The notes under the pieces: model-generated
The model's database searches: none
Told to the model about the DNA's origin: nothing
The model's input: the letters and a program-made list of their open reading frames with translations, nothing else
Assembly: GCA_963768425.1 (NCBI GenBank)
Contig: CAVYHV010000017.1
Location: 1-64,000, forward strand
Length of the DNA stretch: 64,000 nt
Direction of reading: 5' to 3'
Origin: Candidatus Bathyarchaeota archaeon
Lineage (GTDB): Archaea > Thermoproteota > Bathyarchaeia > Bathyarchaeales > Bathycorpusculaceae
Shown here: in pieces, positions 5,505 to 36,876 of the stretch
Numbering within the stretch: position 1 is the stretch's first letter
Layout of the letters: every line of letters begins with the position of its first letter
Made by a program: the position numbers and the translations under genes

Positions 5505-5570
5505 GTACATGCTAAGAAAACAACCTAAAAATGGCTTGGAACGTCGGAGAAGAAAAAAAGGGGAATTCTT

Positions 5571-5603
5571 GCGGGTGATATCTCCACTTTGCCTTGGGTT
5601 CAA
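5571..5603 (+). repeat. att-like repeat copy (dyad arm + T-loop core, no tRNA tail)
   Basis: gcgggtgatatctccac-tttgcctt-gggttcaa. Confidence 0.85.
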
Positions 5604-10001: not shown

Positions 10002-10063
10002 TTCGTTTGCATCCTTCCAACTTTTTATTCCAATTATGCGTCTCAAGGAAAAAAGAGGGTTTT

Positions 10064-10186
10064 GCGGGTGATATCTCCATTTTCGCTTGGGTTCAAATCC
10101 CCCCCAGTCCAAAAGGCAGTCCGAACCCAAGAAAGTGCTAATCACATCTAGCACTTTTGGGTTCAAATCACATAGAGACTCAAACC
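10064..10186 (+). repeat. att-like repeat, long form (arm + core + tRNA-Ala 3' end + hairpin + second core + catagaga tail)
   Basis: gcgggtgatatctccat-tttcgctt-gggttcaaatcccccccagtcca...gaacccaagaaagtgcta/tagcacttttgggttc-aaatcacatagagact. Confidence 0.9.
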
Positions 10187-10284
10187 GCTTCAAGCTCGAA
10201 TCCAATTAATTTTGTTCCCGCTCGCTTTCCTGTTTTCTTTGTTTCTCCGGAAACTTGTGCCTCATAGATGACAGGCATTAGTGA

Positions 10285-11324
10285 CTATTTTATTTTGACT
10301 TTTTCCATAATTGATCCTATGTGTCTAATAGCGGTTGGATCAACACCTTTCTTGGTTTCAAGGTACTTTTGCATTTTTTCTACACCGATCAAGTTTCTTA
10401 CAACATCTGCCTCTTTGACCTGTTCTCTCTGATTGAAACTTCCGTATTTTACTGGATTGTCAACAAAAAGTTGATACTCAAGGTTTTCTTTCAAAAATCG
10501 CTTCGCTCTTGGTGGGGATTTAGGTCTTTTGCCATCACCACCACCTTTAGTTTTAAACGTACTTCCAAAAGCATCTACGTACGTAAAGAGGCTAAGAAAG
10601 TCATCAGCTCTTGACACGTATTCCTCAAATGCTGGAATCCCAAGGTTACATGCATAAATGAATGTTTGATTTAAGGGAATGACTTCGTTAATTTCATAGA
10701 GAATAGAGCGAAGGTCACCAATATGATTGAGCAAGTCTCTGTTCCCAACATCAATCGCATAGGCATTGAACCCTTTTGCCAAATACAAATCAACAAAAGG
10801 CTTTGAAAATTTGAAAGGCAACAATGGTATTGTTCCAACAAACGCTTTGAAGTTTTTCAACTCGCTAATATCAATTAGATCACGTAAAAAGGCAACACAT
10901 TCCGTAATTTTCTTCTCCGAAAAAGTCTTGTTTACTTGCAGCATTTTGGTCCTAACAGTAGGAACAAATAATGCGGATTCGCTAGAAGCGTACCAATAGC
11001 TTGACAAAGACTTGGTTAATTCGTGAGATGGCGCTTCATCAAACATTAAGTCAAAAATAGTCAAATTTAGCTTGTTAGGTAGGCATCGCAACAATAGGTC
11101 TTTTGGTTGCTCATTTCCAGTTTCTAAAAGATTCTAATGTGCGTAAACTCACTCTCTTAGTAACCTCGTTTATTTGTGCAGTAGAGGGTATTGGGGCTTT
11201 CTAAGTTCTTGATACATTTGGTTGGGGTTTCAAAAGACGGCGTCCTAATTACCGATACTTCCTTTCTAATAACCCCATAATCGTCGTCTCTGCATCGTTC
11301 GCGGATTGCTATCTTTGATGCCAT
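10285..11324 (-). CDS. Hypothetical protein, possibly tRNA-guanine-transglycosylase-like TIM barrel (5' part frameshifted)
   Basis: ORF 10285-11094 plus upstream MASKIAIRERC...SFETPTKC; the N-terminal TP motif and GTIP/AID/DAFG segments are loosely TGT-like. Confidence 0.4.
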
Positions 11325-11382
11325 AACGATTAATAATAACTTAAAAAGGTTTAAATATTTATAGGTAGGTCGTGGGGAAAGT

Positions 11383-11963
11383 ATGACTGAACTTCTTGAC
11401 TATGGGCTAGATTCTCCCGCAAGGGCTTTGCTAGTCCTGATTCTTTCCGTAGAAGATAGGACAAAACAAAAAACAATGAACAAACTTCACTTTCAAAAGG
11501 CAATGTACTACTTTGAAAAACTTAAACAAGATAAGGAAGTGTCCTTTTCAAACTACAAGTATGGCGGCGTTTCATTCGAACTCACGGAAAATATGGAAAC
11601 GTTAGAAGAGTCTGGACTTGTAACTAAAACTGGGACTATGTATGAATTAACGGGAGAAGGGGAAAGATTAGCCGAAGAACTTGTATAGAATATAAGAAAC
11701 GTGACCCTGATACAATATGTAAGCTTGAATACGCAAAGTTTCTTTTGAATGATCTCACCGACAAAGAATTGCTGTTCTTTATGTATATGACATTTCCAGA
11801 AACTCAAGTTAACTCGATTGAGTTCAAGAATCTAATCAAAGACAAGAATACTTACGTTCAGAAATTGTTCTTAAAGGGTCGAATAAACACTGCAACAGCT
11901 GCAGAATGGCTTGGAATTCCACCAAGAGCTTTCCTCGATTCTCTACCAAGCTGCGATCAGTAA
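11383..11963 (+). CDS. Antitoxin-like protein: DUF4065/Panacea-like wHTH N-terminus + UPF0175-like C-terminal HTH (split ORFs 11383-11688 and 11745-11963)
   Basis: KLHFQKAMYYF...FSNYKYGGVS; C-terminal GRINTATAAEWLGI. Confidence 0.6.
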
Positions 11964-12448
11964 TGGAATATATTTTCGATACCTCTGCAGTCATAGTATT
12001 ATTGGAAATATGCGGTTTAAAAAAGCAAATTCAAGCGTTTTCTACAAAAAACTCGCTATGTATTCCTAATAGAGTTAGAGAAGAGTTCTTGAATGGATGT
12101 AAAATAGACAAAAAGGATATAGATGTTTTTTCTCTTGTGCAGCCTGTTTTAAACGAAGAATTATTGCCTTATTTTAACAGAAACACAAGTTCTGGTGAGT
12201 TCTGGACAATATCTCATGGTTGCAACAATACTAATTGTGTTTGTGTGATTGACGATGGTTTTGGGAGAGATTTGTGTAGATTTTTGAGGATTCGGCATAC
12301 TGGTTCGATTGGTATTATAAGTGAGATGAAGAAACAAGGTTTTCTGTCAAAAGAAGACTTAGTAAGTATCCGCGAAAAAATAAGGAACAGTCGCTTCTAT
12401 TTGTCTAAAGAACTGATTGCCAAATTAGATGAAATTTGTTTTTCTTAA
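11963..12448 (+). CDS. PIN-domain toxin (DUF3368-like)
   Basis: MEYIFDTSAVI...GE...IDDGFGR...TGSIGII; TAATG coupling to the upstream gene. Confidence 0.8.
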   Translation: MEYIFDTSAVIVLLEICGLKKQIQAFSTKNSLCIPNRVREEFLNGCKIDKKDIDVFSLVQPVLNEELLPYFNRNTSSGEFWTISHGCNNTNCVCVIDDGFGRDLCRFLRIRHTGSIGIISEMKKQGFLSKEDLVSIREKIRNSRFYLSKELIAKLDEICFS

Positions 12449-12585
12449 TTCTTGATAAGGTTACGCAAGGTACAGTTGTGGATTATGGCCTAAACTTCTC
12501 TGGATGCATATAGAATGAACTCAATTCAAACAAAAATCAAAAGGCTGGAGCAGGGCGCACGCGATCCCCATCTCAACACCTTATC

Positions 12586-12622
12586 GGTTTGAACCCGCTA
12601 CGGTTCCGAATCCCGACCGTCT
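12586..12622 (+). repeat. Short inverted-core/forward-core site related to the att repeats
   Basis: ggtttgaacccgctacggttccgaatcccgaccgtc; similar to 17322-17356. Confidence 0.6.
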
Positions 12623-12696
12623 ATTTCTGACTTAGAACTGCCTGTTGTGGCTTGTTTTTCGAGTGCTTTTCTTGGAAGTTGATATTCAATGCAATC

Positions 12697-12780
12697 GCGA
12701 GTGACATCTCCACGGGAAGGGGGTTCAGATCTCATAGAGATTTAATCCAGATTGAGTTCAAATCACTTCCTTGGCGCACT
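12697..12780 (+). repeat. Chimeric att-like repeat (arm + core + catagaga tail + second core + tRNA-Ser-like 3' end)
   Basis: gcgagtgacatctccac-gggaagg-gggttcagatctcatagagatttaatcc...gagttcaaatcacttccttggcgca. Confidence 0.8.
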
Positions 12781-12855
12781 TTAGTGGGGCTTTGTTGACT
12801 AATGTATCACGCACATAATTGTTTTTTTAAGTAAGAGATTAGAGGAAAGGTTTAC

Positions 12856-13047
12856 TGAGGCTCTGGGAACTAAAGGAAGAAAATTTCTTTTCTTTAGGAG
12901 AATAAAAGAAAATGCAACCTTTTCAATTGCAGCTATTTTGAATGTAACCAAAGCCTTCTCAGCACCCATTCTTTCCATCTCTTGCCATTTTTTCATGGTT
13001 TTAAAGGACTAAAAAAAGGGAAAAGGATTGTGTTTAGCATTTTTAGC
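12856..13047. repeat. ~190-bp conserved non-coding segment downstream of PQQ-propeller genes (copies at about 19288-19425 and 38004-38189), including a U-rich terminator on the minus strand
   Basis: Shared gctctgg(g/a)aacta...ctttaggagaa...tcaattgcagctatttt...ggactaaaaaaaggg. Confidence 0.8.
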
Positions 13048-15300
13048 TTATGGATGTTTTCTTGTGACGAGGACCGCGAGCACTGCGCCGATAATGGTGA
13101 TGACGATAATGACAGCGACGATTCCGTATTCGAGGGTTGTGTTTGAGGCTAAGCCAGTGAGCGGTGTTGCTGTCGGTGATGCTGTTGCTCCGGGCGAGCT
13201 TGCGTAGAAAGCTGTTTGAGCAGAAGAGCCATAATACGCTTGCGTACCTGCGAATGTGGCGGTAAGAGTGTAGTTGCCAGAGATGTCAGGCTTCCATACG
13301 AAGCTATACAATCCACTGGCGTCGGTTGTGGTTTTGCCGATTACTCTGTTGTTGTCGTTAGAGTCCAAGACGGATATTGTGACTGGTACTCCGGTTGTGT
13401 TGGTTAGCATTGGCTGCTGCATGTAGACGGCCTCCATGAACTGTGACATGCTTGCGTCGGAAACGCATGGTAAGCCGTTGGGGAAGTTAGCTGCAACTGC
13501 TGCTTGTGATGCGCCTGCGGAGATGTCGGTGACTGCGCCCGTTATCGTTACTGGTGTGTCAGTTGTCACACCCAAGTCGGGAGCCGTGATTGTGGTTTTG
13601 CTGGGTCCCATGCCATAAGCGTATAGCTGGTTGTCATACATGTTTGGAACTACGAGGATGCCATCTGAAACGGGCATTGTTAATTGAATGTTAAAGTTGC
13701 TTATGTCCCAGATTAGGCTTCCAGTGGTAGCGTTTATACAGTAAAGTAGACAGTCTCTAAACAAAGGATCCCCGTGAGATACACCAGTTGACGCATAGAC
13801 TTTGCCGTCAGCGATCGTCATGCTTGTTGTTTCGAATGGTGCTGTGTTGAATCCAGGGACATTGGTTCCGGTGTTTGTTCCGTCAAACCTCCATAGAACC
13901 TGACCAGTCGTAAGGTTGTACGCAGAAACTCCGTCTGTTTCTAAGCCATATAGGATCCCGTTAGCGATTGACGATTCCTTGAAAGATGCTTCTGAACCCC
14001 ACGGGTTAGGATCTGGTGCAGATGTCCATAGCTTCTGACCGGTAGCGGTGCTAAAGGCGTACCATTCCTCTGCGTATGCGTCGTAAGTGGTGTAAACTCC
14101 GTTGGCCATTGGTCCCATAGACCATTCATAGGAATTTGAGGGGGAGGGATATGTGCGGTTTTGGACCCATAGTTGCTGACCTGTTGTCGCATCATAAGCT
14201 ATATCCAATTGAGAGCTTGCTGCAGCGCTTTCGCTGCTTCCATCTGTCACAAGTACTATACCTGAATTGGATTCAACTACCATCTGACCTGGATAGTTTG
14301 GTGTCGTAACGTTCCATTGTATGCCTGTAGCAAAGTTAAGCGTCGCTCCCACGGGAGGATAAAATTGCCAAATGTTTCCAGTGATTGCGGTAGAAGCCTT
14401 CTGGATGCATAGAGATGAGTTCCACATTGCGAGCCAATTATTGCCTATGACGTAATCTAGTAACTCACCGTTAGGACCCTCAACTGTTGGATCACTAAAC
14501 GGGTTACCTGAAAGAGCTGCAGGTGGCACGTTTGCAATTTTCAGTATCTGGTTACCTGTGTTAGCGTCGTACATAGTCCATGTAGTTCCAGTAGTCGACC
14601 ATAAGTATGGAAGGCCTCCTTCTTGGTTTGGCGTTAAATAGTTGTAGATTTGACCGAGTGAGATTGCCGTCCCAAATTCTGCTATACCGGCACCGGGGAG
14701 TAGTCCGGCTACGAGGGGTCCAGTAGCGTTTTGGAACCATAGGGTCTGTCCTGTGCGTAAATCCACGGCGTAGAATCCTTCGTATGGAGATGCAGGCGCA
14801 TTGTAGTAAAGTACTCCGTTGATGATTACGGGCGGTGAAAACTCGCTTTGATATGACTTTCCAGTGTAGTAGTTGCTTGTATCGGTGCCTCCGAATTCGC
14901 CTCCGATTAAGCCTCCATCCTGTAACGGCTTAGTCCAAAGTATATGTGGACTGTTAGGAGCAGTAGTGTATGCATTAAAGTTTCCAGTTCCATTGTAATT
15001 GGTCGCTTGAAACCCGTTAAGCCCTTGAGCCAGCCAATTTCCTGAAATCGTGTACCATAGTTGATTTTGAGCATTTATTGGTGTAGTCCAGTAATTTGTC
15101 GGTAGTGGAGTTTGAGAAAGTGTTGACGCTGGTGGTGTTTGCACTGTGAGTATTGTGCTATAACTGCTTGCTGAATAAAACCAATCAATAAATGATGCGG
15201 TGGTGATATCGTATCCTTCTAGTTGCTGGCCTGGAAAACTGAACTTCAGCGTGTAATTTCCGGTTTGAGTAGGCGTGTAAGTTGTGACTGCAAACGCTGC
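13048..15300 (-). pseudogene. PQQ-like beta-propeller surface protein, 5'-truncated (no signal peptide)
   Basis: Paralogous to 38190-40823; homologous frame continues upstream of the ORF to about 15300 (YTPTQTGNYTLKFSFPGQ) and then ends; C-terminal TM ending RKHP. Confidence 0.75.
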
Positions 15301-15635
15301 AGAGGCGACTTGGGCGTTCTCGACATGGGCAAGCTAACGCGCGAATTGGAAGGCAAAAGTAAGTGAAATTGGAGCCCCGCCCACTCGAATTATTCTTTTT
15401 CTCAGTTGCTCAGTTTTTATGCAGACTAAGGCTTTAATTGAACAGCTCCAGCGCGCTTTTAGCCGTCAGAAAGTTCCGTGCAGACCACTTTTCCAGCTTC
15501 CATTCAGAATCTCAACAACATTTTCAAGGAGCTTCTCAATGAACCGAAAATTGCGCTGTCCGGTAGTTTCCCATTTTCCCAAATTAAGCCGTAGTCGGCG
15601 GTCATTCAACCGCGCGCCGATTAGCAGAAAGTCAA

Positions 15636-15679
15636 GGGTTCAAATCCATAGAGATTTAATCAAGTTTGGAATTCAAATC
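15636..15679 (+). repeat. Core + catagaga-tail site
   Basis: gggttcaaatccatagagatttaatc...ttcaaatc, matches 12721-12764. Confidence 0.75.
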
Positions 15680-15774
15680 GGTTCCGCGTTACAAGAACCT
15701 TGACCTTTTCCCTCGACAAGGTGTATTAACAAATTTTAAATACTTGTAAATATATTTATATTTACTGATAAACG

Positions 15775-16257
15775 ATGTGCCCAAGTTGCTCAGTTTCTTC
15801 ACCGTTGAGTCAAAGTCAAAAAGCCATTTGGTCACTAATCAGCAAAGGCTTCTCAGTCGCAAATATAGCTGACAAACTCAAAACGACACGACAATACGTC
15901 AACCAAACCAGATTAGCCGCAGAAGCTAAACTTGCAACCACACTTCTAGACGTGGCACAAGTCAACGACATCCAAGTGACAAAGCTGTACCCAAAACAAG
16001 CCATGCTCCTCGGCTACCACCCATCACTGAAACGCAAAACCATCATCACCTACACAACCAACCACGGCCTAAAAGTCTGGTACTGGCACGACAACCCCGA
16101 AGAAGTCACCGACCAAGCCTTTCTTGATCAAACACGGGGGTACCTAATGGATATCGGCAGAGAAAGAGGACTAAACATCGAGGAAGTAGCCAATGTTCAC
16201 CCAGCCAAGCTAGCTCACATGATTTTCAGTAAACTTATCCCGGAGTTGAAAGCATGA
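15775..16257 (+). CDS. HTH DNA-binding protein
   Basis: LSQSQKAIWSLISKGFSVANIADKLKTTRQYV, LuxR/sigma-4-like HTH. Confidence 0.75.
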   Translation: MCPSCSVSSPLSQSQKAIWSLISKGFSVANIADKLKTTRQYVNQTRLAAEAKLATTLLDVAQVNDIQVTKLYPKQAMLLGYHPSLKRKTIITYTTNHGLKVWYWHDNPEEVTDQAFLDQTRGYLMDIGRERGLNIEEVANVHPAKLAHMIFSKLIPELKA

Positions 16258-17039
16258 AGCTAAGACATATAGAGCAAAAGGTTAGGGGTTGGCTTCCCGA
16301 ACAGCCGAATAAAGCAAGTATTTCTGAAAGTAAACCTAATACAGCTGCTTTAACAAGCAAATCATTGCTCCGAATTGGCGGAATAGTTTTGCCTATCATT
16401 GGCTTAGGTTTGGTCGCATTTTACACGGTTGAAATGTTTGAGTTCTATTATACGCATTTTCAAATTTTCACCTTGCGTTGGATGCTTTATTTTGCCTATT
16501 TTGCTGGAATAGCCGCTGTGATAGCGGGAGTAAAAATGAGGATGCGTACATCGGCAGTTGGCGTGCCAGAGTTCAAGAGAGCAAACTCGGTTGCAGGAAT
16601 AACATTACTTTCAATAGCTTCTCTTGGTCTTGTTGTCGTTACTGAGGCAGACCTGCATCTTGCATCCACTCTCACGGTATTTCAATTCATTCGGCTGTCT
16701 TGGTGGAGTAATCCGGGAAATTACGCGAATATTCTTTCGATTCTGCCATTAGCGGGATTGTTAATTCTATTAGTTGGAAAAACTAAACAAACTAAATTTC
16801 GACTCTCAACAAAGATTGCATTATGGATTCTATCCCTTGGTGTCATAGCATTAATTATGAATGTAATAATTGGAGTGTTTGGTTCAGTTGGGCTAAATGC
16901 GGCGAACGGGTACGTGCTCTTAGCACCTTACACTGCTCTTTATTTGATTCCTGTTGGCATTTTATCCCTAACTTCCGCATGGCTTTTTCTGCTATCCACT
17001 CAATCATTTCAAGTCGGTGGCTCAATTGGTACACAGTAA
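16254..17039 (+). CDS. Polytopic membrane protein with N-terminal RGWLP motif
   Basis: About 6 hydrophobic helices; ATGA overlap with the HTH gene. Confidence 0.75.
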   Translation: MKLRHIEQKVRGWLPEQPNKASISESKPNTAALTSKSLLRIGGIVLPIIGLGLVAFYTVEMFEFYYTHFQIFTLRWMLYFAYFAGIAAVIAGVKMRMRTSAVGVPEFKRANSVAGITLLSIASLGLVVVTEADLHLASTLTVFQFIRLSWWSNPGNYANILSILPLAGLLILLVGKTKQTKFRLSTKIALWILSLGVIALIMNVIIGVFGSVGLNAANGYVLLAPYTALYLIPVGILSLTSAWLFLLSTQSFQVGGSIGTQ

Positions 17040-17321
17040 CTGAATTTGAGGGAAGATTAAGGTAGCTCTTATGACCATGGCCTTTTCCCATTATTAGGCG
17101 TACCTAACCTCTGCTTTATTAAGCGAAAGTCAAAGATTCGATTTCTGCATCGAAACAAGAAAAAGAAAAGGGAGAACGCAGAAGCGAAAATTCTTTTGTT
17201 GATATCAACAACCGAGTCCTAGACCAAACTTAGACGACGACCGACTCAGCCTCACGACAACATAATGTCGCCGAAATCATTTTCGGCGATTTCAGGGTAA
17301 TTTTCGCTTTCTGTGCAGTGT

Positions 17322-17356
17322 GGTCTGAACCCTACGGTTCTAATCTCCCTCAGTCC
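17322..17356 (+). repeat. Inverted core + core + tRNA-Ala-like tail
   Basis: ggtctgaaccctacggttctaatctccctcagtcc; tail matches 29509-29528. Confidence 0.7.
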
Positions 17357-17379
17357 GCTCGGAAAATATCGTTGCTTGT

Positions 17380-18093
17380 TTATTTTTGATACTGAAGGGG
17401 CCTTATGACTTTGATGGGTTTTATTTTTTTCCAGTCTGTTATATCTTCAGTTATTATGGTGTCTAAGCCTTGCCTTTTCATGCATGCGGCATGTACAGAG
17501 TCATAGGTAACGCCTGATTCTAGCATAATGGTCGCTGCGTCTTGAAGAACTCGTTCATCGATCTGTATCATCTCTATCGGCAAAGAAAAGAATGCATCAA
17601 GAGCGATTGCCGCTTTTGCAGGATCTATCTTGGATAGGGAACCTAGGAGTTCTATAGGAACCAGAAAACCACAGAAAGCGTCAATCTTCTCATTCTGGAT
17701 ATCATCGATTATTTGTTTACAACACTTTCCGTAAACGGGGTGTGCTAGAGCTGAATAATCAAAGATGTTGGTGTCCACGTAGTAGCTCAATCTGCAGCTT
17801 CCTTTTGCTTTTCGCAACCCAGTTTCTTTTGGCTTGGAGAGGGCGGTCTTTTCCCAAGATTCTTCAACGAGTTTGGTTGCGTCAATATCGATTGGTTTGC
17901 CAAAAAGGTTCCAGAGTGCATCAGAGGGGTTGGAGACGCGTTTTGGAGATTCCATTATTATGCGTTTGTTTTCAGACTTTACAATGAGTTTGTCGCCAAT
18001 TTTTACGCCAAGTTTGGATCGGACACTTTCAGGTATAGTAACCTGGTACTTTCGAGTCACCTTAACTTCTTCTTTCAAACGCGGATTCACCAA
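17380..18093 (-). CDS. AbrB antitoxin-PIN (VapC) toxin in one reading frame
   Basis: VTRKYQVTIPESVRSKLGVKIGD (AbrB) then YYVDTNIF...YDSVHAA...ITED (PIN). Confidence 0.8.
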   Translation of the reverse strand: MVNPRLKEEVKVTRKYQVTIPESVRSKLGVKIGDKLIVKSENKRIIMESPKRVSNPSDALWNLFGKPIDIDATKLVEESWEKTALSKPKETGLRKAKGSCRLSYYVDTNIFDYSALAHPVYGKCCKQIIDDIQNEKIDAFCGFLVPIELLGSLSKIDPAKAAIALDAFFSLPIEMIQIDERVLQDAATIMLESGVTYDSVHAACMKRQGLDTIITEDITDWKKIKPIKVIRPLQYQK

Positions 18094-18159
18094 TGATGGT
18101 AGTACAGGCGTAGTACTTTAAGCTTCTGCAAAACGGAGAATCGCGAATTCTGCTGCTAT

Positions 18160-18210
18160 GAACACTTGACTTGTACTCAAGAGGTCAGATGTTCAAATCC
18201 CCCCAGTCCA
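18160..18210 (+). pseudogene. Degenerate 3' two-thirds of a tRNA-Ala-like gene
   Basis: Anticodon arm cttga-cttgtac-tcaag, variable loop aggtc, T-loop ttcaaat, tail ccccccagtcca; no 5' half. Confidence 0.7.
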
Positions 18211-18258
18211 TAACGCGGTTTTAACCTTTTAAGTACAGATATACACCAGATTAATTTT

Positions 18259-18287
18259 GGGTTCGAATCTCTTCTCAGGCGCCAACT
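18259..18287 (+). repeat. tRNA-Ser-like 3' fragment (direct repeat with 19208-19230)
   Basis: gggttcgaatctcttctcaggcgccaact vs gaatcccttcccaggcgccaact. Confidence 0.75.
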
Positions 18288-18360
18288 CCAAAATTATGGT
18301 CATAGGATTTTGGTGAAGTTTATAGGATACGTTTGATATCTACTGTATTACAGGGATTCC

Positions 18361-18654
18361 ATGTCAGAAACAATCACGCTAAGATTACCTCCTGCAACAG
18401 CAAGGAAACTTCGTGAAATAGCTAAGAAAGAAGGAAAAGACAGATCAACGCTCATACGCGAGTTACTGGAGCACGGAGTTAAAGAGAAAGGTCTAGAACA
18501 GGCGATTGAACTCTATCGTGCAGGTCAAGTCACTGGTTGGAAGGCAGCCCAACTAGGAGGAGTGTCCCTATGGGCGTTCTATAGAATATTGGCAGAAAAA
18601 GGAGTTCTCATCCAGTATTCTGAGCAAGACTTGGAGGAAGACCTCAAGTCTTAA
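18361..18654 (+). CDS. UPF0175-family antitoxin (RHH + HTH)
   Basis: ITLRLP...DRSTLIRELL...AIELYRAGQVTGWKAAQLGGVS. Confidence 0.85.
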   Translation: MSETITLRLPPATARKLREIAKKEGKDRSTLIRELLEHGVKEKGLEQAIELYRAGQVTGWKAAQLGGVSLWAFYRILAEKGVLIQYSEQDLEEDLKS

Positions 18655-18669
18655 TTGGAGCACAGAAAT

Positions 18670-19202
18670 TTGCGCACCATCTCCAACACCAGTCCGCTAA
18701 TATGGCTCTCAAAAATGGGCAAACTTGATCTACTCAGAGACCTTTTTGATGAGATTTTGATCCCAAAAGAAGTTTACGAGAAGCCGTTGCAACAGGTCTG
18801 CAAGAAGGGTTCAGCGATGCTTTGATAATCAAAGAGGCGGTTGATCAAGGCTGGATAAAAATAACAATGCTTGATGAAAAAGAAGTCGAACTGTGCCTCG
18901 AAATGACGAATCACGCATTTGAACTTCATATGGGTGAAGCGCAGGCTATAGCTTTAGCTCGCAGAATGGGCAAGGAAACGCTACTTTTAATTGATGAATC
19001 TAGCGCTCGAGCATTTGCTGAAGCTTGGGGGCTAAAAGTCAAAGGCGTAATCTACGTTATAATGACGTCTCTCCGACGCGGAATATTGGATAAAAAAGAG
19101 GCAAAGGAAATAATGCTAACTCTGGTTCGCAAAGGGTTCAGAATCGAACCAAAATTGCTGGCAAGAATAATAAAAGAAATCGATGACTCGCAGTTAAACT
19201 AG
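18670..19202 (+). CDS. DUF3368-family PIN toxin (frameshift near 18780)
   Basis: MRTISNTSPLIWLSK... then LHMGEAQAIALA...IDESSARAFA. Confidence 0.8.
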
Positions 19203-19207
19203 GAAGA

Positions 19208-19230
19208 GAATCCCTTCCCAGGCGCCAACT
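19208..19230 (+). repeat. tRNA-Ser-like 3' fragment
   Basis: gaatcccttcccaggcgccaact, with G discriminator + CCA. Confidence 0.7.
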
Positions 19231-19425
19231 TTCATTTTGCCGAATTGAAAAAGTCAACCGTGGCTTGCTCGAGCGATTTTGGGTTTGCTGCTCTGGAAAC
19301 TACGAAAGAAAAGTTCTTTTAGGAGAAAAAGAAAAAATGCAAACTCTTCAATTGCAGCTATTTTGAATGTAACTTTCTATAGGACTAAAAAAAGGGAAGA
19401 GGATTTGGTGTTGGTTTTTTGTCGT

Positions 19426-22032
19426 TTATGGGTGTTTTCTTGTCACGAGCAGTGCGACTATGACGATGCCTATGATGAATACAATGATCATTGCGACGAC
19501 TGCGTACATGACTGTGGTGTTTGAGGCTAAGCCGCTGAGTGGTGTTGCTGTGGGCGCTGGTGTTGCCGCTGGAGCGCCTGCGTAGAAGTAGGTTGAGGCT
19601 GAGGATCCGTAGTATGATTGTGTGCCTCCGAAGACTGCGGTGACCGTGTAATTGCCTGCGATGTCAGGGGTCCATGTTAAGCCGTATTCGCCTTGCGCGT
19701 TGGTTGTGGTTGTGCCGATTGATCGGTAGTTGCCATTGGAGTCTAGGACGAATAGTGTGACTGGAACGCCGGTTATGTTGGTTGGCATTGGCTGCTGCAT
19801 GTAGACTGCTTCCATGAAGGCCGTCATGCTTGCGTCTGAAACGCATGGTAACCCGTTGGGGAAGTTCGCGGCAACCGCATTCTGCGATGCGCCAGAGGAG
19901 ATGTCTGTAACTGAACCGGTGATCGTCACTGGTGTCGATGTTGTAACGCCAACCTGTGGTGCATTAACAGTTGTTTTGCTTGGGCCCTGCCCGTAAGCGT
20001 ATATCTGGTTGTCGTAGCCGTTTAGAGCTACGAGAACGCCGTCTGAAATAGGCATGTCTCCTTCACCGAATGTGTTTATGTTCCAAATTAGTTTTCCAGT
20101 AGTAGCGTTTACGCAGTAAAGTTGGGCGCCATCAAAAACTGGGTCTCCATGACTAACGCCTGTGTTCAAGTAGAGTTTTCCGTCAGCAACGGTCATTGTA
20201 GCTTGCTCAAAAGGATAGTAATTGAATCCAGGAAAATTCGTTCCACTGTTAATTCCGTTGAAAGTCCAAAGTGGCTTGCCAGTTGTTAGATCAAAGGCGT
20301 GAACCCCATCTGAAGCAAATCCATACAGAATTCCATAAGCAATTTGGGATTGCCACGGACAAGGCTCTGAACCCCATGGATCTGCATCGGCTGTAGTTGG
20401 GCCCCATATCTTTGGCCTGTGTTGGCGTTATATGCATACCACTGCTCAGCAAATGCATCGTATACTGTGAATATGCCGTCAGCCATTGGTCCCATTTCGT
20501 AGTTGAACCCAGTTGTGGGTCCAGATGGTAGTGTCACATTTTGAATCCATAGTTGATTCCCTGTTGTTGCGCTGTAGCCTACTTCGATTGCGTAGCTAAC
20601 GGTGGGAGGCGCCAAAAAGCTGCCAACTCCCGTATCTGTGCTTGTAAGTATTATTCCTGAATTGACGTCTACTATTGCCTCGCCTGGGTAAGTTTGACTG
20701 GTAATGTTCCATTGGATGCCCGTTTCCCAGTTAAGACTTGCTCCAGTTGGTGGACTCCAGACCCAGTAGTTTGTACTAAATAGCGAGATCGGTGGCGTAT
20801 ATTCGCCGAATGTTCCGATGGCCTGTGACGAGTTCCACAAAGCTATCCAACCAGTTCCTACGATGTAGTCAAGGAGTTCGCCGTTAGGTCCTTCAACTGT
20901 CAGTTGTGAATCCTCCGTTGGGCTTAATGCATTTGTCATTTGTAATATCAGGTTTCCCGTGTTGGCGTCATACATGTACCACGTATTTGTGTCAGTTGAC
21001 CACAAGTAGGGCAAACCTCCTTCCATGTTGGGTGACAGATAGTTATAGGTCTGACCAAGCGTAAGATCAGGGTATGCCCAGCCCACCACCATGCCGCCAA
21101 AAGGTTGGTACGGTGCGCCGGTGCTGTTTTGCCACCATAATTGTTGTCCCGTTTGCAAATCTACAGCGTAGAAACCTTCTTTAGGATTCGTAGGAGCATT
21201 GTAGAAAAGTACGCCGTTGATAATTATTGGCGGTGTGAACTCCATTTGATAAGACTTTCCCGTGAAGTAGTTGCTTGTATCGGTTCCGCCGAATTCGCCT
21301 CCGATTAGGCCTCCGTTCTCCACTGGCTTAGACCACAGAATGTGAGCACTTCCGGGTCCGGTGCTGTATGCATTGAAGTTTCCCGTCGAGTTGTAGTTTG
21401 TTGATCCAAAAGTTGATGTTCCTAACGCCAGCCAATTTCCTGAAATTGCAGCCCATAAACTATTTTGTGAATTTATTGGGCGGGTCCAGTATGATGTTGG
21501 AAGCGGAGTTTGTGAATAAGATGACGCTGGTTGTTGCTGCACCGAAAGGGATGTGGTGAAACTGCTCCCTGCAAAATAATTGTTGATTGGTTGGTCAGTT
21601 ACGAATGAAAACCCAGTTACGTGCTGCCCTGGAAAATTGAACTTAAAGGTGTAGTTACCAACAGTAGCAGGTGTGTAGTATGTCACGTAGAATGAGGCGT
21701 CATTGGCTGTGAACGGTCCTAATGTTGTGGTTGTCCCGCTGGGCGTTGTAATCAATACTGTGAAGCCCTGCCATCTTCCTCCTACCTCACCAAATGCAGT
21801 CGGGTTGGCTTGGCCAACCACATTTCTATGGTCGCCTGCTGCCGACTCCTGCGGGGTTCGGCGAAACATTACAAAAGGCATTCGTAGGCCAAGGAGAAGT
21901 TGCGGTCTGGGCTTTTGTCGTTGGTAAAGCTATTACTGCCCCGGAAATTGTCAACAACAGAATCAAAGAAATTACTGATAGTTTCTGCTTTCCATGATTC
22001 TCAGAATTCCTAATAAAGAACTCAATAGACAT
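19426..22032 (-). CDS. PQQ-like beta-propeller surface protein (frameshifted: ORFs 21826-22032, 20286-21881, 19426-20196)
   Basis: Signal peptide, TPLPTSYWTRPI, NFPNGLPCVSDASM, C-terminal TM ending RKHP. Confidence 0.8.
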
Positions 22033-22184
22033 TTTTGTTTTTCTCCTTATTCTTATAAAGAATGAGATCAGAGGAAACTGTATTTAAAAAGTGGCAAGAA
22101 AGCTTCTTGCTTTCAGAAAAACTTAAAACTGAAATGATATGAAAGGTACATAGGTAACATTGCGTTGCCTGTACCGGGGAGAGG

Positions 22185-22976
22185 ATGATGCTTCAAAGTG
22201 AAGATATTCAGACTCTTAGAGGATTTGGGCTCACGTTTCTTCAAGCCAAGGTTTACCTTACCTTGCTTAAAAAAGGACAGAGTACAGTTAAGAAAATTGC
22301 GGAAAATGCCAGCATAGCAAGGCAGGAAGCCCAGCGAGTTACTGCTGAACTGCAAAGTCTGGGGCTGGTAGAAAAAATATTGGTAAATCCAACCGAGTTT
22401 AAACCAGTTCCCATAAACGAAACTGTTTCTTTTCTTGTTAAACGAAGAGAAAAATCTTCATTAGAGCTTGAGCAGAAGGCAAAAAAGATTCTCGAAGACT
22501 TCAAGAACACTCAAGTGGAAAGATTAACCGAAGAAAAAACAGCCGAATTTGTGATCACAAGCGGGAAAGAAGCAATCATAAGACATTCAAGAATGGTCGT
22601 TGATAAAACAGAAGAGTCATGCGACATCATCAATGGTTTATGGGAAAACGTCGGCTACGCGAGTTCCCTTTTCAAGAACCAAACCCTTGAAGCGCTAAAA
22701 AGACAAGTAAAAATAAGAATTGTCTCAGAGAAGCTTCCTGAACAGCAATCAGCTCAAAAGATCTATGAACACTGTATGCCCTATCCCAACTTTAGAATCA
22801 AATTCATTTCATCATCGCTACCAGCAATGATTGGTATTTACGACAAAAAAGAACTGCTTGTCTACACCTCTCCTGAAAAACTCATAGGTGATTCTCCGAT
22901 GCTGTGGACGAATAGCCGTGCCTTAATATTTTCAGTCCAGACTTATTTCAACAAACTATGGAAACAAGCTGCTTAA
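22185..22976 (+). CDS. TrmB-family transcriptional regulator
   Basis: LRGFGLTFLQAKVYLTLL HTH; C-terminal IYDKKE...LWTNS...YFNKLW. Confidence 0.9.
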   Translation: MMLQSEDIQTLRGFGLTFLQAKVYLTLLKKGQSTVKKIAENASIARQEAQRVTAELQSLGLVEKILVNPTEFKPVPINETVSFLVKRREKSSLELEQKAKKILEDFKNTQVERLTEEKTAEFVITSGKEAIIRHSRMVVDKTEESCDIINGLWENVGYASSLFKNQTLEALKRQVKIRIVSEKLPEQQSAQKIYEHCMPYPNFRIKFISSSLPAMIGIYDKKELLVYTSPEKLIGDSPMLWTNSRALIFSVQTYFNKLWKQAA

Positions 22977-23115
22977 CCATGTGATTTTTATTTTATCAGG
23001 GACATGAACGTTGCATTGTAAGAGAAAAGAATTTTTTGAATAAGAATTAAATGGGTTTGTTGAGGTTCTGGCCGGCGCGAGTAATCCGCTGATTAGAAGA
23101 CAAAAATGGGGTTTT

Positions 23116-23165
23116 GCGGGTGATATCTCCACTTTGGCAAGGGTTCAAATCCCCCCAGTCCACCA
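23116..23165 (+). repeat. att-like repeat, best consensus copy ending in CCA
   Basis: gcgggtgatatctccac-tttggcaa-gggttcaaatccccccagtccacca. Confidence 0.9.
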
Positions 23166-23400
23166 TAACCGTTACCATAACAGCTTCTCAGAATTTCATG
23201 GAAGAATGTAGTTGATTGGGTTTTTCAAAAGGGTATTTGCTCTATGACGCTGATGTTATTAGGTTGCAGCTTGATTTTGGCGAGTTTAGGGTTGTTTATC
23301 AGGAATTCATAAATCACTTATATTGTATCTGCATAAAAAAGATGCATCTTCAGCCTAAAAGTGTAAACTCCATGATCCAGAAAGAAACGGTGAATAGCTC

Positions 23401-24927
23401 ATGAAAAATATTTGGAACTCCTATATCAGAAAGGTAACTTCCAGGAAAATTTTGTGCATTTCAGTTTTCTGTCTCATGTTATTGGCGTCTCTAACCTTTA
23501 TCGATTCTAAGGCGGTCACCGCAATCAGTTCTGGAACAGGCAACTCCGAGAGCATTATTAAGCCCTTTCAAGCTATCGACAATAACAACTGGTACACAGG
23601 AGCAAATGAGTCAACTCCCCAAGTGGATGTGAACTATTCACAGTTTATGCCTCAGGCTGATACTCTTGACCGAAGCATGACACTATGGTATGGAAACGGT
23701 GCCACTAGAGTGTCTATGCACTTTGTTTACTGGTTCAATCCAGGAGGCATAAACGACTCCGCTTCAAGTTATCCAAACTATAACCCGCAAGTGCTGGACT
23801 GGACCCAACTGAACGGCATATCATTTACGTTAGCCGATGATGGAAGTTTAGACTCTACGACGGCATGGGGAACGACATATTCGTTTAGTGGATTTGATAT
23901 CATTAACGGAACTGCACAACAGCTAAGCCTTAATGAAGTTGGAAATTCGACGGATTACGCGTATATGCTCAACAATCAAGTTGGCAGCATCTCGTATGCT
24001 AACTGCAGTGCGGCAGCAATCGGCCCTGTAACATTAGACACCGAAAATACTACCTACAACGGTAACGCTTTGACCGACAGCATAGCCACATTTAACGTGA
24101 CGCTGGACGCGCAGATAATCAACTGCCAACTGACTGCAGCGGGACCAAACACGCCGACACTTCCATCACATCAAACGTTAAGCAACGTGCCGATTACTCT
24201 TATGTTTCAAGTTACTGAGAACTCCGCTTACACGGCTTATAAGTACGGTGTGAACGTTGATTGGAGCGCAGATACCGCTTTCCCAACTACGGGATTGAAT
24301 AATGGAGACAGTTTCAGTTTAGTAACAGCTGACAGTTTAGGTTTTGGAATAACTCAAGATGCCATCGCTCAACCGTTCGTCTCCTTCTTCTCTACGGATG
24401 CTAATAATGATAGCGCAATTTATTCGGTCAACCGCACAGAAGTTTGCCAAGAAATTTTCCCATTAAACTACACGATAAATGGCGGCTTCCAAACATACAA
24501 CACGACACGCCTTTACGTTCCAGTCCAAAATTATGTTCAAAGCACAGACCCAAGCCAAGCTAGGAATTCATCCATTATGTATGTCTGTTTTGACGGATTC
24601 AAATACAATCAAAGCACAGGATTCTCATTTGACCCAACTGTAATAACATACGGCTCAGCAAGCAACAGTAGTCCGTCCCCTTCACCCACGCAGAATCCAA
24701 CGCCTACTCCAAGTCCAACATCATCAACCTCAGGTTCATCATCAACCCCAAGCCGGTCAGCTTCGCCAACAGCTTCAACCTCGCCCTCAGGCACGTCAAC
24801 ACCTTCACCGACAGTTCCGGAGTTTCCGTCGTTACTTGTAATCGCGACAATATGCTTGGCAGCATCTCTACCTATTGCAGTGCTGACTAAAAGGAAAAAC
24901 AGGATAATCGCAAACACAGAATGCTAA
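23401..24927 (+). CDS. Secreted surface glycoprotein with S/T/P linker and PEF-type anchor
   Basis: Signal peptide, many NxS/T sites, C-terminal VPEFPS + TM + KRKNR. Confidence 0.85.
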   Translation: MKNIWNSYIRKVTSRKILCISVFCLMLLASLTFIDSKAVTAISSGTGNSESIIKPFQAIDNNNWYTGANESTPQVDVNYSQFMPQADTLDRSMTLWYGNGATRVSMHFVYWFNPGGINDSASSYPNYNPQVLDWTQLNGISFTLADDGSLDSTTAWGTTYSFSGFDIINGTAQQLSLNEVGNSTDYAYMLNNQVGSISYANCSAAAIGPVTLDTENTTYNGNALTDSIATFNVTLDAQIINCQLTAAGPNTPTLPSHQTLSNVPITLMFQVTENSAYTAYKYGVNVDWSADTAFPTTGLNNGDSFSLVTADSLGFGITQDAIAQPFVSFFSTDANNDSAIYSVNRTEVCQEIFPLNYTINGGFQTYNTTRLYVPVQNYVQSTDPSQARNSSIMYVCFDGFKYNQSTGFSFDPTVITYGSASNSSPSPSPTQNPTPTPSPTSSTSGSSSTPSRSASPTASTSPSGTSTPSPTVPEFPSLLVIATICLAASLPIAVLTKRKNRIIANTEC

Positions 24928-25119
24928 AAAGTAAAGACGTCCTTACGAACTTGAACTTTCAACGGATAATACTTGCAACCGTCAGAATAGCCTTTGTTAG
25001 TAAAGGCTCATATGAGAGCTTGAAGAACAATTTTATGCCCGAAACTCGGAAAAGACTCTACACCTCAACTAGCTATCCCCCTTAGAAGTTCCACACTTGA
25101 TTTCTAAAAAGAGGAAAAT

Positions 25120-25166
25120 GTGGTGATATCTCCACTTTCGGAGGGGTTCAAATCCCCCCAATCCAC
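25120..25166 (+). repeat. att-like repeat
   Basis: gtggtgatatctccac-tttcggag-gggttcaaatccccccaatccac. Confidence 0.9.
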
Positions 25167-25209
25167 TAAGATCTTTTAAATTACCCGAGATTTGTCGCGC
25201 ATTAAATCG

Positions 25210-26238
25210 TTAACCGAAGAAAACGCTTGCCGTCTCGTAGAGTTCTGGACTCACCGTTTTGTTTTTTCCTACGACGTCTTTCAGCGCGACTGGAACAATA
25301 TGGGTTCCCTGGATTCCCACCAAATATCCAAATTTGCCCTCATGGACAAAGTCGATTGCCGCTAAACCATACCTAGTGCCCAAGATTCTGTCAAAAGCTG
25401 TTGGAGTCCCGCCGCGTTGGATATGCCCCAAGATCACGACACGTGTCTCAGTTCCTATGCATTTCTCAATCTCTTTCCCCAAATAATATCCAACACCGCC
25501 CAAACGCACGTTGCCAAACTCGTCCACTCCGTCACTGTAAAGTACCTTTTTTCCACCCTTAGGCGTGGCGCCTTCAGAGACAACTACTACGCTAAAGTTT
25601 CTTCCACGTTTCTGCCTTTGGCTAATGTACTCACAGATTTCAGCAAGGTCAAAAGGCTTTTCTGGAATTAGAATGACATCAGCGCCGCCCGCAAGCCCTG
25701 ATTCTAAAGCAATCCAGCCTGCATTTCGTCCCATAACTTCCAGAATCATCACCCGGTGGTGAGCCTCTGCAGTACTTCGAAGCCTATCCAGAGCATCAGT
25801 TGCTATAGACACAGCCGTATTAAATCCGAAAGTGTAGTCCGTACCCACCAAATCGTTGTCTATGGTTTTTGGCACCCCTACACATTTAATTCCAAAGTCA
25901 CCCAACCGACAGGCGACACCTAAAGTATCATCCCCGCCGATAGCTATGATCGCCTCCATTCCTGACTTTTTCATATTCTGAAGCATGCGTTCCACCCCAT
26001 TTTCGTACTTGAAAGGGTTGGTCCGCGAAAAACCCACAATAGAGCCTCCACGGCCTAAGATAGCTGTTATGGCCTCTTGATCTAAGACCATAAATTCGCC
26101 CTCAAGCAATCCACGCCAGCCATCTCTGATTCCTATTAAGTCATCGCCGTACTTCTTTAGACCCTTTCTTACGATGGCACGGATAACGGCGTTTGTTCCG
26201 GGAGCGTCACCGCCTCCAGTCAGAATTCCAACCCTCAT
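25210..26238 (-). CDS. pfkA: 6-phosphofructokinase (PfkA family, probably PPi-dependent)
   Basis: LTGGGDAPG, IGGDDT, PKTIDND, EVMGR, LGHIQRGG. Confidence 0.95.
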   Translation of the reverse strand: MRVGILTGGGDAPGTNAVIRAIVRKGLKKYGDDLIGIRDGWRGLLEGEFMVLDQEAITAILGRGGSIVGFSRTNPFKYENGVERMLQNMKKSGMEAIIAIGGDDTLGVACRLGDFGIKCVGVPKTIDNDLVGTDYTFGFNTAVSIATDALDRLRSTAEAHHRVMILEVMGRNAGWIALESGLAGGADVILIPEKPFDLAEICEYISQRQKRGRNFSVVVVSEGATPKGGKKVLYSDGVDEFGNVRLGGVGYYLGKEIEKCIGTETRVVILGHIQRGGTPTAFDRILGTRYGLAAIDFVHEGKFGYLVGIQGTHIVPVALKDVVGKNKTVSPELYETASVFFG

Positions 26239-26375
26239 TTTGACTAACCTCTTTAGTCACGTTAGAAATGCTTCAAGAGTATACAACAAGACTTGTTTTA
26301 TAACCTTTATCAAAACGGATACAATTCGCGTTCCGCACCTTTTCGAGGTGTTCTCTCAACAGAAAAAAAGGGAAT

Positions 26376-26496
26376 GCGGGTGACATCTCCACTTTGGTTG
26401 GGGTTCAAATCCCCCCCAGTCCATAATGCAGTCTGAACCCGAGAGAGTGCAAATCACAATAACACGTTTGGGTTCAAATCCGATAGAGACTTGACC
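26376..26496 (+). repeat. att-like repeat, long form (homologous to 10064-10186)
   Basis: gcgggtgacatctccac-tttggttg-gggttcaaatcccccccagtcca-taatgcagtctgaaccc...gggttcaaatccgatagagact. Confidence 0.9.
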
Positions 26497-29404: not shown

Positions 29405-29530
29405 TGTCCGCGCGAAGTTCAAAAAAGCAGAACAGTCAAACGAGATTGCTTTAAAACTTGAGCAAACGGTAAAAAAGGAAGTGTGGGTGATATCTCCACT
29501 TTCAGAAGGGTTCAAATCTCCCTCAGTCAC
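29405..29530 (+). repeat. att-like repeat with ~80-bp extended left arm (direct repeat of 36751-36876)
   Basis: tgtccgcgcgaag...aaaaagcagaacagtcaaacgagattgct...gtgggtgatatctccac-tttcagaa-gggttcaaatctccctcagtc. Confidence 0.9.
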
Positions 29531-31752: not shown

Positions 31753-31760
31753 CCAGTGCG

Positions 31761-32246: not shown

Positions 32247-32393
32247 CGAACTTATGAGATTCGGAATTAGGATTAGTTTTCGTATAGTCCATCACTTTAT
32301 CAAGATTATGCATTCGCCAGCTTCATCTTGGTTAATTCATCTCTAAAATGGATTTGCAAATTCAACAGCAAGCTTGCTACAAAAAAAGGAATT

Positions 32394-32440
32394 CGGGAGA
32401 AATCTCCACTGGGACGTCGGTTCAAATCCCCCCAGTCCAC
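32394..32440 (+). repeat. att-like repeat (diverged arm)
   Basis: cgggagaaatctccac-tgggacgt-cggttcaaatccccccagtccac. Confidence 0.85.
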
Positions 32441-32865
32441 TTCAACATCGCTGCCACAGCACCCGAGAATTCCGAGGAGTTGGAGAGTATTGCGTTTTCA
32501 GAAAAATCTATTCTCCCAAAAGTCTCACATTCTATGTATATCCGAAGCTTGAGCTCAGATGCTACTGTAACCTGAGGATTTCTGACTTAGAAATGTCTCT
32601 ATTGGGTCCAATTCGCTTTCTTCACTTTATTGATTTTAGTGGGAGATTTTTCGTGCCTGCGGCATCCATCCTTCACGCCGCTTTACTTCTGAAATATATA
32701 GCTCTTCCCAGTACTTGCCCATAACGTAGAACCTGTTTTCCATGTAGCTCGATTCTTCTTTCGAATCTTCACAAGCGTTTACGACAATATGTCCCAATTG
32801 TTCTTGCTTATTCATTTTTTCCATGTTGTTTTTCATCATCATAACTACATACACCACACACATAG

Positions 32866-35700: not shown

Positions 35701-35802
35701 GGGCGTGCGCGATTGGGCAAACGGGATAAGGTTAGGATCAACGTCTCTACTGACAAAATGAGCAGAAATTAACATGAAAACTTCAATTAAGCAACGCACT
35801 GG
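35701..35802 (+). mobile_element. Orphan right end of a related IS (transposase 3' tail + TIR)
   Basis: ...aatgagcagaaattaaca...aattaagcaacgcactgg aligns with 31680-31752. Confidence 0.75.
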
Positions 35803-36750: not shown

Positions 36751-36876
36751 TGTCCGCGCGAAGACTAAAAAAGCAGAACAGTCAAAACGAGATTGCTTCA
36801 AAACTTGAGCAAGCGGCAAAAAAGAGGAAGTGTGGGATACCTCCACTTTTCAAAGGGGTTCAAATCCAGTCCACCA
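36751..36876 (+). repeat. att-like repeat with extended arm; last copy in the window
   Basis: tgtccgcgcgaag...gtgggatacctccac-ttttcaaag-gggttcaaatccagtccacca. Confidence 0.85.

Follow-up and report, generated by a model that had tools for sequence, protein, structure and literature searches.

A tRNA T-arm-derived module as a probable recombination junction in arrays of small accessory-gene units of Bathyarchaeia

The first 64,000 nucleotides (nt) of contig CAVYHV010000017.1 (positions 1 to 64,000, forward strand; assembly GCA_963768425.1, Candidatus Bathyarchaeota archaeon), here called the window, carry many copies of one short core sequence that is joined, from copy to copy, to different flanking DNA. 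What kind of site is this, and what has shuffled its flanks? The original prediction, made from the letters of the interval 10064-26496, read the flanks as footprints of repeated crossovers within the core and compared a bulged hairpin at some of the sites with the attC sites of integrons. From the analysis reported here, the window holds small accessory-gene units that gathered at a tRNA-Ala(TGC) locus into a hypervariable array, and the sites between the units are probably attachment (att)-type recombination junctions on tRNA T-arms, where integrase-less units were accreted and reshuffled.

With at most one mismatch, GGGTTCAAATC is matched 15 times in the window, 14 times on the + strand, compared to a mean of 1.57 and a maximum of 4 in 100 shuffles. 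The core GGGTTCAAATCC corresponds to the inner T-stem and the 7-nt T-loop (TTCAAAT) of tRNA genes, and TTCAAAT is the T-loop in 22 of the 30 T-loops extracted from the tRNAs of this genome; judged by its letters, the GGGTTCAAATC core is the T-loop with stem of tRNA genes. The DNA that follows it tells the same story at several sites. In the relatives G029 and G016, the "Ala tail" CCCCCC(C)AGTCCA forms the 3' end of tRNA-Ala(TGC), and the tails at 12754 and 18259, ...GGCGC(C)A, are similar to the ...GGCGCC(A) with which two tRNA-Ser genes of this genome (GGA and TGA) end. The repeat thus reproduces the 3' portion of a tRNA gene and runs in the gene's own direction. In front of the core stands an arm of 15 nt, GGGTGAYATCTCCAC, present at nine sites and usually preceded by an A-run. 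Searched as GGGTGATATCTCCAC with up to three mismatches, the arm gives 10 matches in the window against 0.83 expected; these amount to 9 sites, one match being a palindromic echo. The order in a short module is A-run (AAAAAAGRGG), 3-6 nt, GC, arm, 8-9 nt, GGGTTCAAATCC and tail. A profile built from module copies finds eight strong copies, from 5551 to 36883, all on the + strand, and about 13 recombination-site remnants in all span 5.5-36.9 kb of the window. That the core is a tRNA T-arm, and that arm and core together are a module of the whole class, sharply bounded on its own left side, are additions to the original prediction.

No complete tRNA gene accompanies these copies: ARAGORN reports zero tRNAs in the window, Rfam models find nothing there at the gathering score, and a permissive Rfam scan of the window returns two weak tmRNA-like T-arm matches (E 0.056 and 0.75). 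An intact tRNA-Ala(TGC) is not among the 34 tRNAs of the 91%-complete assembly, and the window begins at a contig end. At 18145-18210 (+), in the middle of the array, lies an almost full-length pseudo-copy of tRNA-Ala(TGC) that aligns with the relatives' gene from the D-arm to the 3' end; it is a pseudogene, because the 5' acceptor strand is lost, the anticodon is TGT and the T-stem is broken.

How far the flanks are shuffled around the core can be read within the window. Every combination named by the original prediction was found again in its place: arm, core and Ala tail at 23118-23165; arm, core and CATAGAGATTT at 12699-12748; core and CATAGAGA without an arm at 15636; and core with Ser-like tail at 12754 and 18259. 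When the sites were aligned to map where homology switches, comparisons inside the window and with relatives alike placed the switch points on or beside GGTTCAAATCC, at the core or the ends of the module, and this part of the prediction stands. Compared to the pseudo-tRNA, the window's arm copies diverge immediately 5' of GGG-TTCAAAT, and the tails diverge at or after the core. The metagenome-assembled genome (MAG) of the close relative G103 has genes in common with the window, at 93-95% identity. On one contig and one strand it has a CDP-alcohol transferase gene (window 31753-32330), a 73-nt piece (35735-35807), a module and then the 6-phosphofructokinase gene pfk (25150-25467), as opposed to the window order of pfk, transferase and 35.7-kb piece, likewise on one strand. 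At the left border of pfk the homology begins inside the T-loop of the core, at AAATCCCCCC (AAATCC); upstream of it the window has the arm and G103 a GAACCC-AACAC flank. Homologues of pfk (65-70% nt identity) follow immediately after tRNA-Gly(GCC), tRNA-Ser(GGA) or tRNA-Arg(CCG), on the downstream side, in 3 of the 9 other genomes examined.

The loci L048, L067 and L101 belong to two other MAGs and have one 46-nt module in common, flanked by A+X, A+Y and B+X, which reads as a reciprocal-exchange pattern. The switch points coincide with both ends of the shared module, so the crossover would lie somewhere inside these 46 nt. As a comparison of occupied with empty sites, this trio and the pfk border fit; the contigs are short, and none holds an element whole between both junctions. 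A metagenome contig begins its exact match at 15636, and the combination arm, core and CATAGAGA is found in 3 metagenome contigs, all of one locus.

Is the module a peculiarity of this genome? With at most one mismatch, 61 genomes of the genus and order yield 108 hits to the arm, spread over 33 of them, compared to 5 hits for the reversed control; the arm is present in 22 of the 36 other genomes of the genus and in 10 of the 24 other genomes of the order. Its hits cluster on one strand at a spacing of 0.4-5 kb. The exact arm-core pattern occurs in at least 118 stretches, and 77 of 80 titles among the matches listed bear the label Bathyarchaeota or Bathyarchaeia; as far as sequence matches tell, the arm-core module is found almost only in the class Bathyarchaeia. 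The three other titles among the 80 are a small Methanoperedens contig, a Gemmatimonadales MAG and an "uncultured archaeon". The exact arm-core copies of the first two (L040/L031) are on a 667-kb contig (Gemmatimonadales MAG) and a 6.6-kb contig (Methanoperedens), and binning error, mislabelling or transfer could be their cause.

Across the 118 listed copies the arm and the core are constant and the tail varies. Joined to the same arm are the tails of tRNA-Ala(TGC), Leu(TAG), Arg(CCT) and an Ala(CGC/GGC)-like tRNA and, besides these four, a fifth kind of tail, CAGCGGCCCCACCA; in other copies non-tRNA DNA begins inside or just past TTCAAATCC. On the left side, the A-run before the arm is replaced in some copies by other conserved flanks, ..TAATAGTTAAGTCTTC or ..GCTTAGTTAGAGTCA (loci L037, L038, L065, L094, L110, L134, L183:1149; L142, L181, L184), so that no fewer than three types of sequence can precede the arm.

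In the relatives these modules form arrays on one strand downstream of intact tRNA genes, with units of 0.4-5 kb. The arrays of L013 and L020 begin with a tRNA-Ala(TGC). The L026 array runs from tRNA-Leu(TAG) through a HicAB pair, a partial tRNA-Leu 3' half, a nitroreductase gene, a module and an archaeal histone gene to another module, at a spacing of 600-900 bp. Other arrays hold single genes for nitroreductase, glyoxalase, SnoaL, flavodoxin or PadR, as well as arsenic or metal-resistance genes and an ABC transporter. The units in general consist of single accessory genes or toxin-antitoxin pairs, without an integrase. This genome has a second array on contig C10, with an intact tRNA-Ala(CGC) followed by three partial copies. 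In this array (G000:C10:27861-34450, L147) a core with the tail of another tRNA, CAGCGGCCTCGCCA, lies 22 nt past tRNA-Ala(CGC), an open reading frame (ORF) pair resembles VapBC, and one partial Ala(CGC) copy ends in CATAGAGAC. The genes around 46 module copies point in all directions: (-,-) 13, (-,+) 13, (+,-) 10 and (+,+) 9, one copy having no upstream gene. A role as promoter or terminator is unlikely, since the orientation of the neighbouring genes is random, and cassette genes co-oriented behind a common promoter are not what these 46 copies have.

An att-type junction would account for these features as follows. The succession T-stem, 7-nt loop, T-stem is a symmetric site type used by tyrosine recombinases, and a T-loop sublocation class of tRNA integration sites was reportedly set out by Williams in 2002. 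The arm GGGTGAYATCTCCAC, usually behind the A-run, would be the element-side P and the T-loop core would be O; P' would be a tRNA-restoring tail or the element-side CATAGAGA... flank, and B and B' would be the tRNA gene and what came after it. The tRNA tails would then be DNA of the chromosome side, or DNA that restores the tRNA (B' or P'). Strands would be exchanged in the T-loop region by a trans-acting recombinase of the tyrosine type, probably in a site-specific and not a homologous manner. Exchange between a module and a tRNA gene would found an array, and exchange between two modules would add, delete or reorder units; the resulting units would hold one to few genes, facing either way, with a module closing each of them. 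The composite at 12699..12779 (+) has the arm at 12699-12713, the core GGGTTCAGATC at 12721-12731, CATAGAGATTTAATCC, a second core at 12754-12764 and the tail ACTTCCTTGGCGCAC. It is identical in another genome (L039, L185-187) and looks like an intact, unrecombined attP (P-O-P'). Reversed, CATAGAGATTTAATCC agrees with the arm at 10 of 15 positions by manual count, and this resemblance hints at putative inverted binding sites around the core.

Several observations tell against reading the sites as att junctions. No recombinase is found among the 34 window ORFs scanned with Pfam (0.3-43.1 kb) and no integrase in the relatives' arrays examined, and in five genomes the arms lie mostly more than 35 kb from any PF00589 hit. 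Of the two integrases considered below, the one on contig C28 is without a full-length homologue in 60 other genomes of the genus, and the G003 family is absent from this genome and has direct repeats that lack the arm. Nor was the target tRNA gene that would head the array found in this genome, which has the pseudo-copy at 18145-18210 only. A free form of the element was not found, viral contigs yielding zero arm-core matches. On its right side, the transferase gene has its border about 45 nt ahead of the A-run and not at a module, which fits less neatly. A circular or empty-site junction is not proven from read contigs of 150-350 nt at low depth. All the genomes are MAGs, in which single examples may be due to a repeat misjoin. 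Finally, where the whole module of 46-60 nt is shared, homologous recombination would be expected to give the same pattern.

This genome has seven PF00589 hits, five of them above the cut-off. The C28 integrase lies 300 bp from an arm-less Ala-tail site, and one genome has a 118-residue partial C-terminal match to it, with an internal stop. The integrase family that is tRNA-adjacent in G003 is present in 14 of 60 genomes of the genus. As candidates for the recombinase of the module, neither the C28 integrase nor the G003 family could be tied to the arm. Among the 36 genomes of the genus, all 9 with strong hits to the G003 family have arms, and 0 of the 14 arm-less genomes has such a hit; this co-occurrence is a weak hint, for related genomes are not independent cases, and the family is missing from arm-rich genomes, this one among them. 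G003 also contains a possible full element, in which tRNA-Gly and an integrase gene are followed, 9.7 kb on, by an arm-core with a Gly-like tail (21 of 26 positions).

Sequencing reads were also searched for rearranged forms. Twenty runs each contain at most 0.18 of the sampled words of 18000-27000, and the reads of four runs over the window assemble into contigs of 150-350 nt at depth 2-5. Three joints were seen, namely 13073 to 19531, 25012 back to 17702, and a 26438-TTGTTC-10159 piece; as rearrangements they are explained equally by paralogues or related loci. No joint in these contigs can be read as an excision or an inversion.

Within the att family of explanations one may go further and take the small units for cassettes that are mobile today and served by a recombinase in trans, an idea that we consider possible and rather doubtful. 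The units of the window have no high-identity duplicate elsewhere in the genome, where only paralogous surface-protein tails match, and the nitroreductase units of three arrays are distant paralogues only, not one shared cassette. Just as tentative is a broader view of the Bathyarchaeia as owners of an integron-independent cassette platform, with the T-arm as entry site (the role of attI), the module of about 60 nt as cassette site (the role of attC) and a recombinase encoded elsewhere in the genome. On such a platform the recombinase would excise, capture and reorder single-gene units, such as those of pfk, nitroreductase, HicAB, histone and metal resistance.

The most serious rival to att-type junctions sees in the module a dispersed repeat that serves another function, such as the binding of a chromatin or regulatory protein, and whose flanks were shuffled by homologous recombination. 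The arm is a near-palindrome (GGnGAyATCnCC), as often found in protein-binding sites, the whole 46-nt module is identical within subfamilies, so that the switch points might simply bound the repeat, and a dedicated recombinase was not found in the 34 window ORFs or in the relatives' arrays. Many junctions, however, share only core and tail, 11-23 nt in all, as where the arm meets a real tRNA, where the arm meets the GAACCC flank, and with five different tRNA tails. A stretch of 11-23 nt is too short for efficient homologous exchange, and at many junctions such exchange is disfavoured because no more than this is shared. The copies also cluster in arrays beside tRNA genes and not near particular gene classes or promoters. 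Altogether we regard a dispersed repeat as unlikely.

Another proposal, for which we see little chance, makes the module of about 60 nt a miniature non-autonomous transposable element that inserts itself into intergenic DNA. It would explain the sharp left and right ends and the near-identical subfamilies beside many different flanks. Upon reading the copies, however, no terminal inverted repeats or target duplications were seen, and the copies form same-strand arrays at tRNA genes instead of being scattered genome-wide. Nor do the two flanks of a copy adjoin each other elsewhere in the comparisons made: flank A is combined with X in one locus and with Y in another, as at a junction rather than at a simple insertion.

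Slightly less credible still is that the modules are small tRNA-like RNA genes or split-tRNA 3' halves, with a promoter in the upstream A/T-rich stretch. Split and permuted tRNAs do occur in Archaea, the arm starts with GCGGGTG like the 5' end of a tRNA and could pair with a Leu-type tail (6 of 7 positions), and many copies have A/T-rich DNA some 20-25 nt upstream. The arm, in contrast, is unable to pair with the Ala, Arg or Pro-like tails, and many copies are without any tRNA tail. In the 118 listed copies the T-stem is kept only for GGG/CCC of the core, with 50:64 pairs in 41% (z -0.4), and the 8-9 nt before the core show no covariation with the tail. The consensus fold of the module is negligible (-2.4 kcal/mol), and Rfam at gathering score and ARAGORN give no hit. 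Because the T-stem is not maintained beyond GGG/CCC, the module is to be seen as a DNA junction and not as an RNA arm.

The attC comparison of the original prediction started from the bulged hairpin GAACCCAAGAAAGTGCTA...TAGCACTTTTGGGTTC with its 2-nt bulge, which is indeed present at 10123-10164. Folded as single-stranded DNA, 10085-10172 scores z -4.8 and -4.4 against shuffles on its two strands, as opposed to -1.3 and -0.2 for the homologous 26397-26483; pairing is lost in this second long form, an outcome that the original prediction had itself named as refuting the hairpin, and the short modules fold no better than shuffles. What does recur, in the window and in relatives, are the inverted hexamers GAACCC...GGGTTC, 3-34 nt apart. 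This pair is a second kind of left flank of the core, an inverted half-site arrangement, and not a conserved attC-like stem. Direct reading of the sequence reveals no boxes of the attC consensus RYYYAAC/GTTRRRY (R''/L'', L'/R'), and in this genome the integron-integrase model TIGR02249 reaches at best 89.5 bits, compared to a cut-off of 265. That the sites are attC and the region an integron cassette array (CALIN) is hardly conceivable: same-strand repeats do part units of one to few genes including toxin-antitoxin pairs, one site does have a strong bulged hairpin, and integrons have been reported in Archaea (PMC9668308), yet the hairpin is not conserved, R''/R' boxes and an IntI above the cut-off are lacking, unit genes lie in either direction, and the sites are plainly tRNA 3' ends. 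In the portion of that paper available to us, the archaeal integrons are described with canonical attC sites, and tRNA is mentioned zero times (PMC9668308).

The attC analogy is accordingly rejected as membership and retained as a functional resemblance. As in integron arrays (available portion of PMC9668308), a short conserved site closes each small accessory-gene unit and the arrays are same-stranded; toxin-antitoxin units, a unit order that varies among relatives and the frequent absence of a recombinase gene from the arrays are further likenesses. Unlike integrons, the Bathyarchaeia modules are without attC boxes, a conserved bulged hairpin or IntI, their genes face either way, and their sites derive from tRNA T-arms. 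In contrast to attC, these sites are probably used as duplex DNA.

The closest known systems are tandem accreted integrative elements at tRNA genes, in which displaced tRNA 3' fragments form attR repeats; archaeal "gene capture" and integrase-less cis-mobilisable remnants (CIMEs) are counted among them. Shared with these are the directly oriented 3' fragments of tRNAs that lie downstream of a tRNA gene, and a crossover in a symmetric tRNA arm. The available parts of PMC6563490 and PMC8371274 describe archaeal arrays of integrated elements that reuse one tRNA site, and the loss of integrases after integration; several units at one site with integrases often lost are thus a further likeness. tRNA fragments displaced by integration are likewise described for archaea (in the part available of PMC9897764), where the cases with partial tRNAs involve 9-23 kb, in contrast to Bathyarchaeia units of mostly 0.4-5 kb with one intact gene or toxin-antitoxin pair. 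The Bathyarchaeia arrays further differ in having a class-wide arm of 15 nt, usually with the A-run, joined to the tails of at least four identified tRNAs, in lacking an integrase in or beside most arrays, and in their evident module-by-module exchange. In the literature, supplements aside, we came across neither a class-wide arm fused to T-arm cores nor arrays of single-gene integrase-less units in Bathyarchaeia.

The individual sites of the window are as follows, the module copies, long forms, mini inverted pairs and arm-less cores being all on the + strand. Sites within 10064-26496, the range of the original prediction, are real, and the family proved to be wider, with extra sites at 5553, 25106 (inside that range), 29470, 32381 and 36818. 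The copy at 5553..5603 has the A-run, the arm (5573-5587) and a shortened core GGGTTCAAG; beyond it comes non-tRNA DNA, in which an inverted Ala-tail-like TGGACCAGGGG follows after about 35 nt. Both predicted long forms, each with an inverted core and a second forward core, were found (10049-10186 and 26363-26490), and they are 83% alike. The first starts as a module copy (10049..10111) with A-run, arm (10066-10080), core (10089-10099) and tRNA-Ala(TGC) tail CCCCCCAGTCCA (10100-10111); its extension (10112..10186) comprises the inverted core GAACCC (10123-10128), the imperfect hairpin (10123-10164), a second core (10159-10169) and the tail ACATAGAGAC. The second (26363..26490) has the arm at 26378-26392, the core at 26401-26411 and the Ala tail to 26423, and in its right part an inverted GAACCC (26435-26440), a second core (26470-26480) and CGATAGAGAC, the hairpin being decayed. 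The two mini inverted pairs are likewise present: GAACCC-GCTAC-GGTTCCGAATCC (12586..12619, pair 12592-12613) is a second-type left flank without arm, and GAACCC-TAC-GGTTCTAATC (17322..17358, pair 17327-17345) is followed by a degenerate Ala-like tail, TCCCTCAGTCCGC.

The arm-less core at 15636..15692 has the tail CATAGAGATTTAATC and a second core-like GAATTCAAATC, and would be of the B-O-P' type; at 18259..18284 the core GGGTTCGAATC and the tail TCTTCTCAGGCGCCA make a tRNA-Ser-like 3' end. The copy at 23102..23165 consists of A-run, arm (23118-23132), core (23141-23151) and Ala tail with CCA. At 25106..25165, the arm (25121-25135), core (25144-25154) and tail CCCCCAATCCA form the left border of the single-gene pfk unit (25166..26362, - strand; 6-phosphofructokinase at 25210-26238), which thus lies between two module copies. 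Further on, the copy at 29470..29530 has the arm at 29485-29499, the core at 29508-29518 (T next) and a degenerate tail, TCCCTCAGTCAC; another core-like sequence, TGGTTCAAATC, is nearby at 29619. Two copies have variant arms: in 32381..32447 the arm GGGAGAAATCTCCAC (32395-32409) and core (32418-32428) are followed by the Ala tail and then CTTCAACA, the same sequence that trails the relatives' real tRNA-Ala, and in 36818..36876 the arm GTGGGATACCTCCAC (36832-36846) and core (36856-36866) are followed by a shortened tail, CAGTCCACCA.

According to the Pfam scan, the units of the window encode surface proteins, VapBC-like and PIN proteins, TrmB regulators, pfk, a histidine kinase with response regulator, a TMEM175 channel, an insertion sequence (IS), a CDP-alcohol transferase and a glycosyltransferase. 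The surface-protein locus 5709-9620 (-) has about seven tandem 126-nt repeats (YVTN-like propeller blades) and Thr/Pro-rich linkers. It reads as three overlapping or adjacent ORFs (5709-6605, 6569-6895 and 7182-9620), and for this reason may be frameshifted or misassembled in the repeats. The C-terminal 800 nt or so of the PQQ/beta-propeller surface proteins belong to a large paralogous family (65-80% nt identity), found at 12846-13640, 19280-20020, 37995-38770 and about 25 other places of the genome; the similarity extends some 180 nt past the stop codon, with a short hairpin, and the members share a transmembrane tail ...VTRKHP. The IS (DDE_Tnp_1 transposase, 30719-31711) lies directly left of the CDP-alcohol transferase gene, and in G103, without an IS there, homology begins at 31752. 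Upstream of the first module, 322-2140 holds a restriction-modification pair (N6_N4 methylase and EcoRII-C-like endonuclease) and a UDG-family gene, a content that fits an accessory-gene region. Within ORF 48012-48824 there is an AAC/AAT-rich low-complexity tract (48213-48409) with a periodicity of 9-15 nt.

Bathyarchaeia are among the most abundant uncultured archaea of sediments and peat, and to our knowledge little has been established about how they gain and swap accessory genes. Even on a conservative reading, the module explains the abundance of tRNA-like fragments in these genomes, shows the places where their assemblies break, and marks metabolic genes, here the one for ATP-phosphofructokinase, as mobile rather than core. 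If the modules are active, the arm plus T-loop would be a simple sequence marker for the hypervariable gene-capture regions of the class, and Bathyarchaeia would possess a cassette mechanism with an integron-like outcome, built from tRNA attachment sites.

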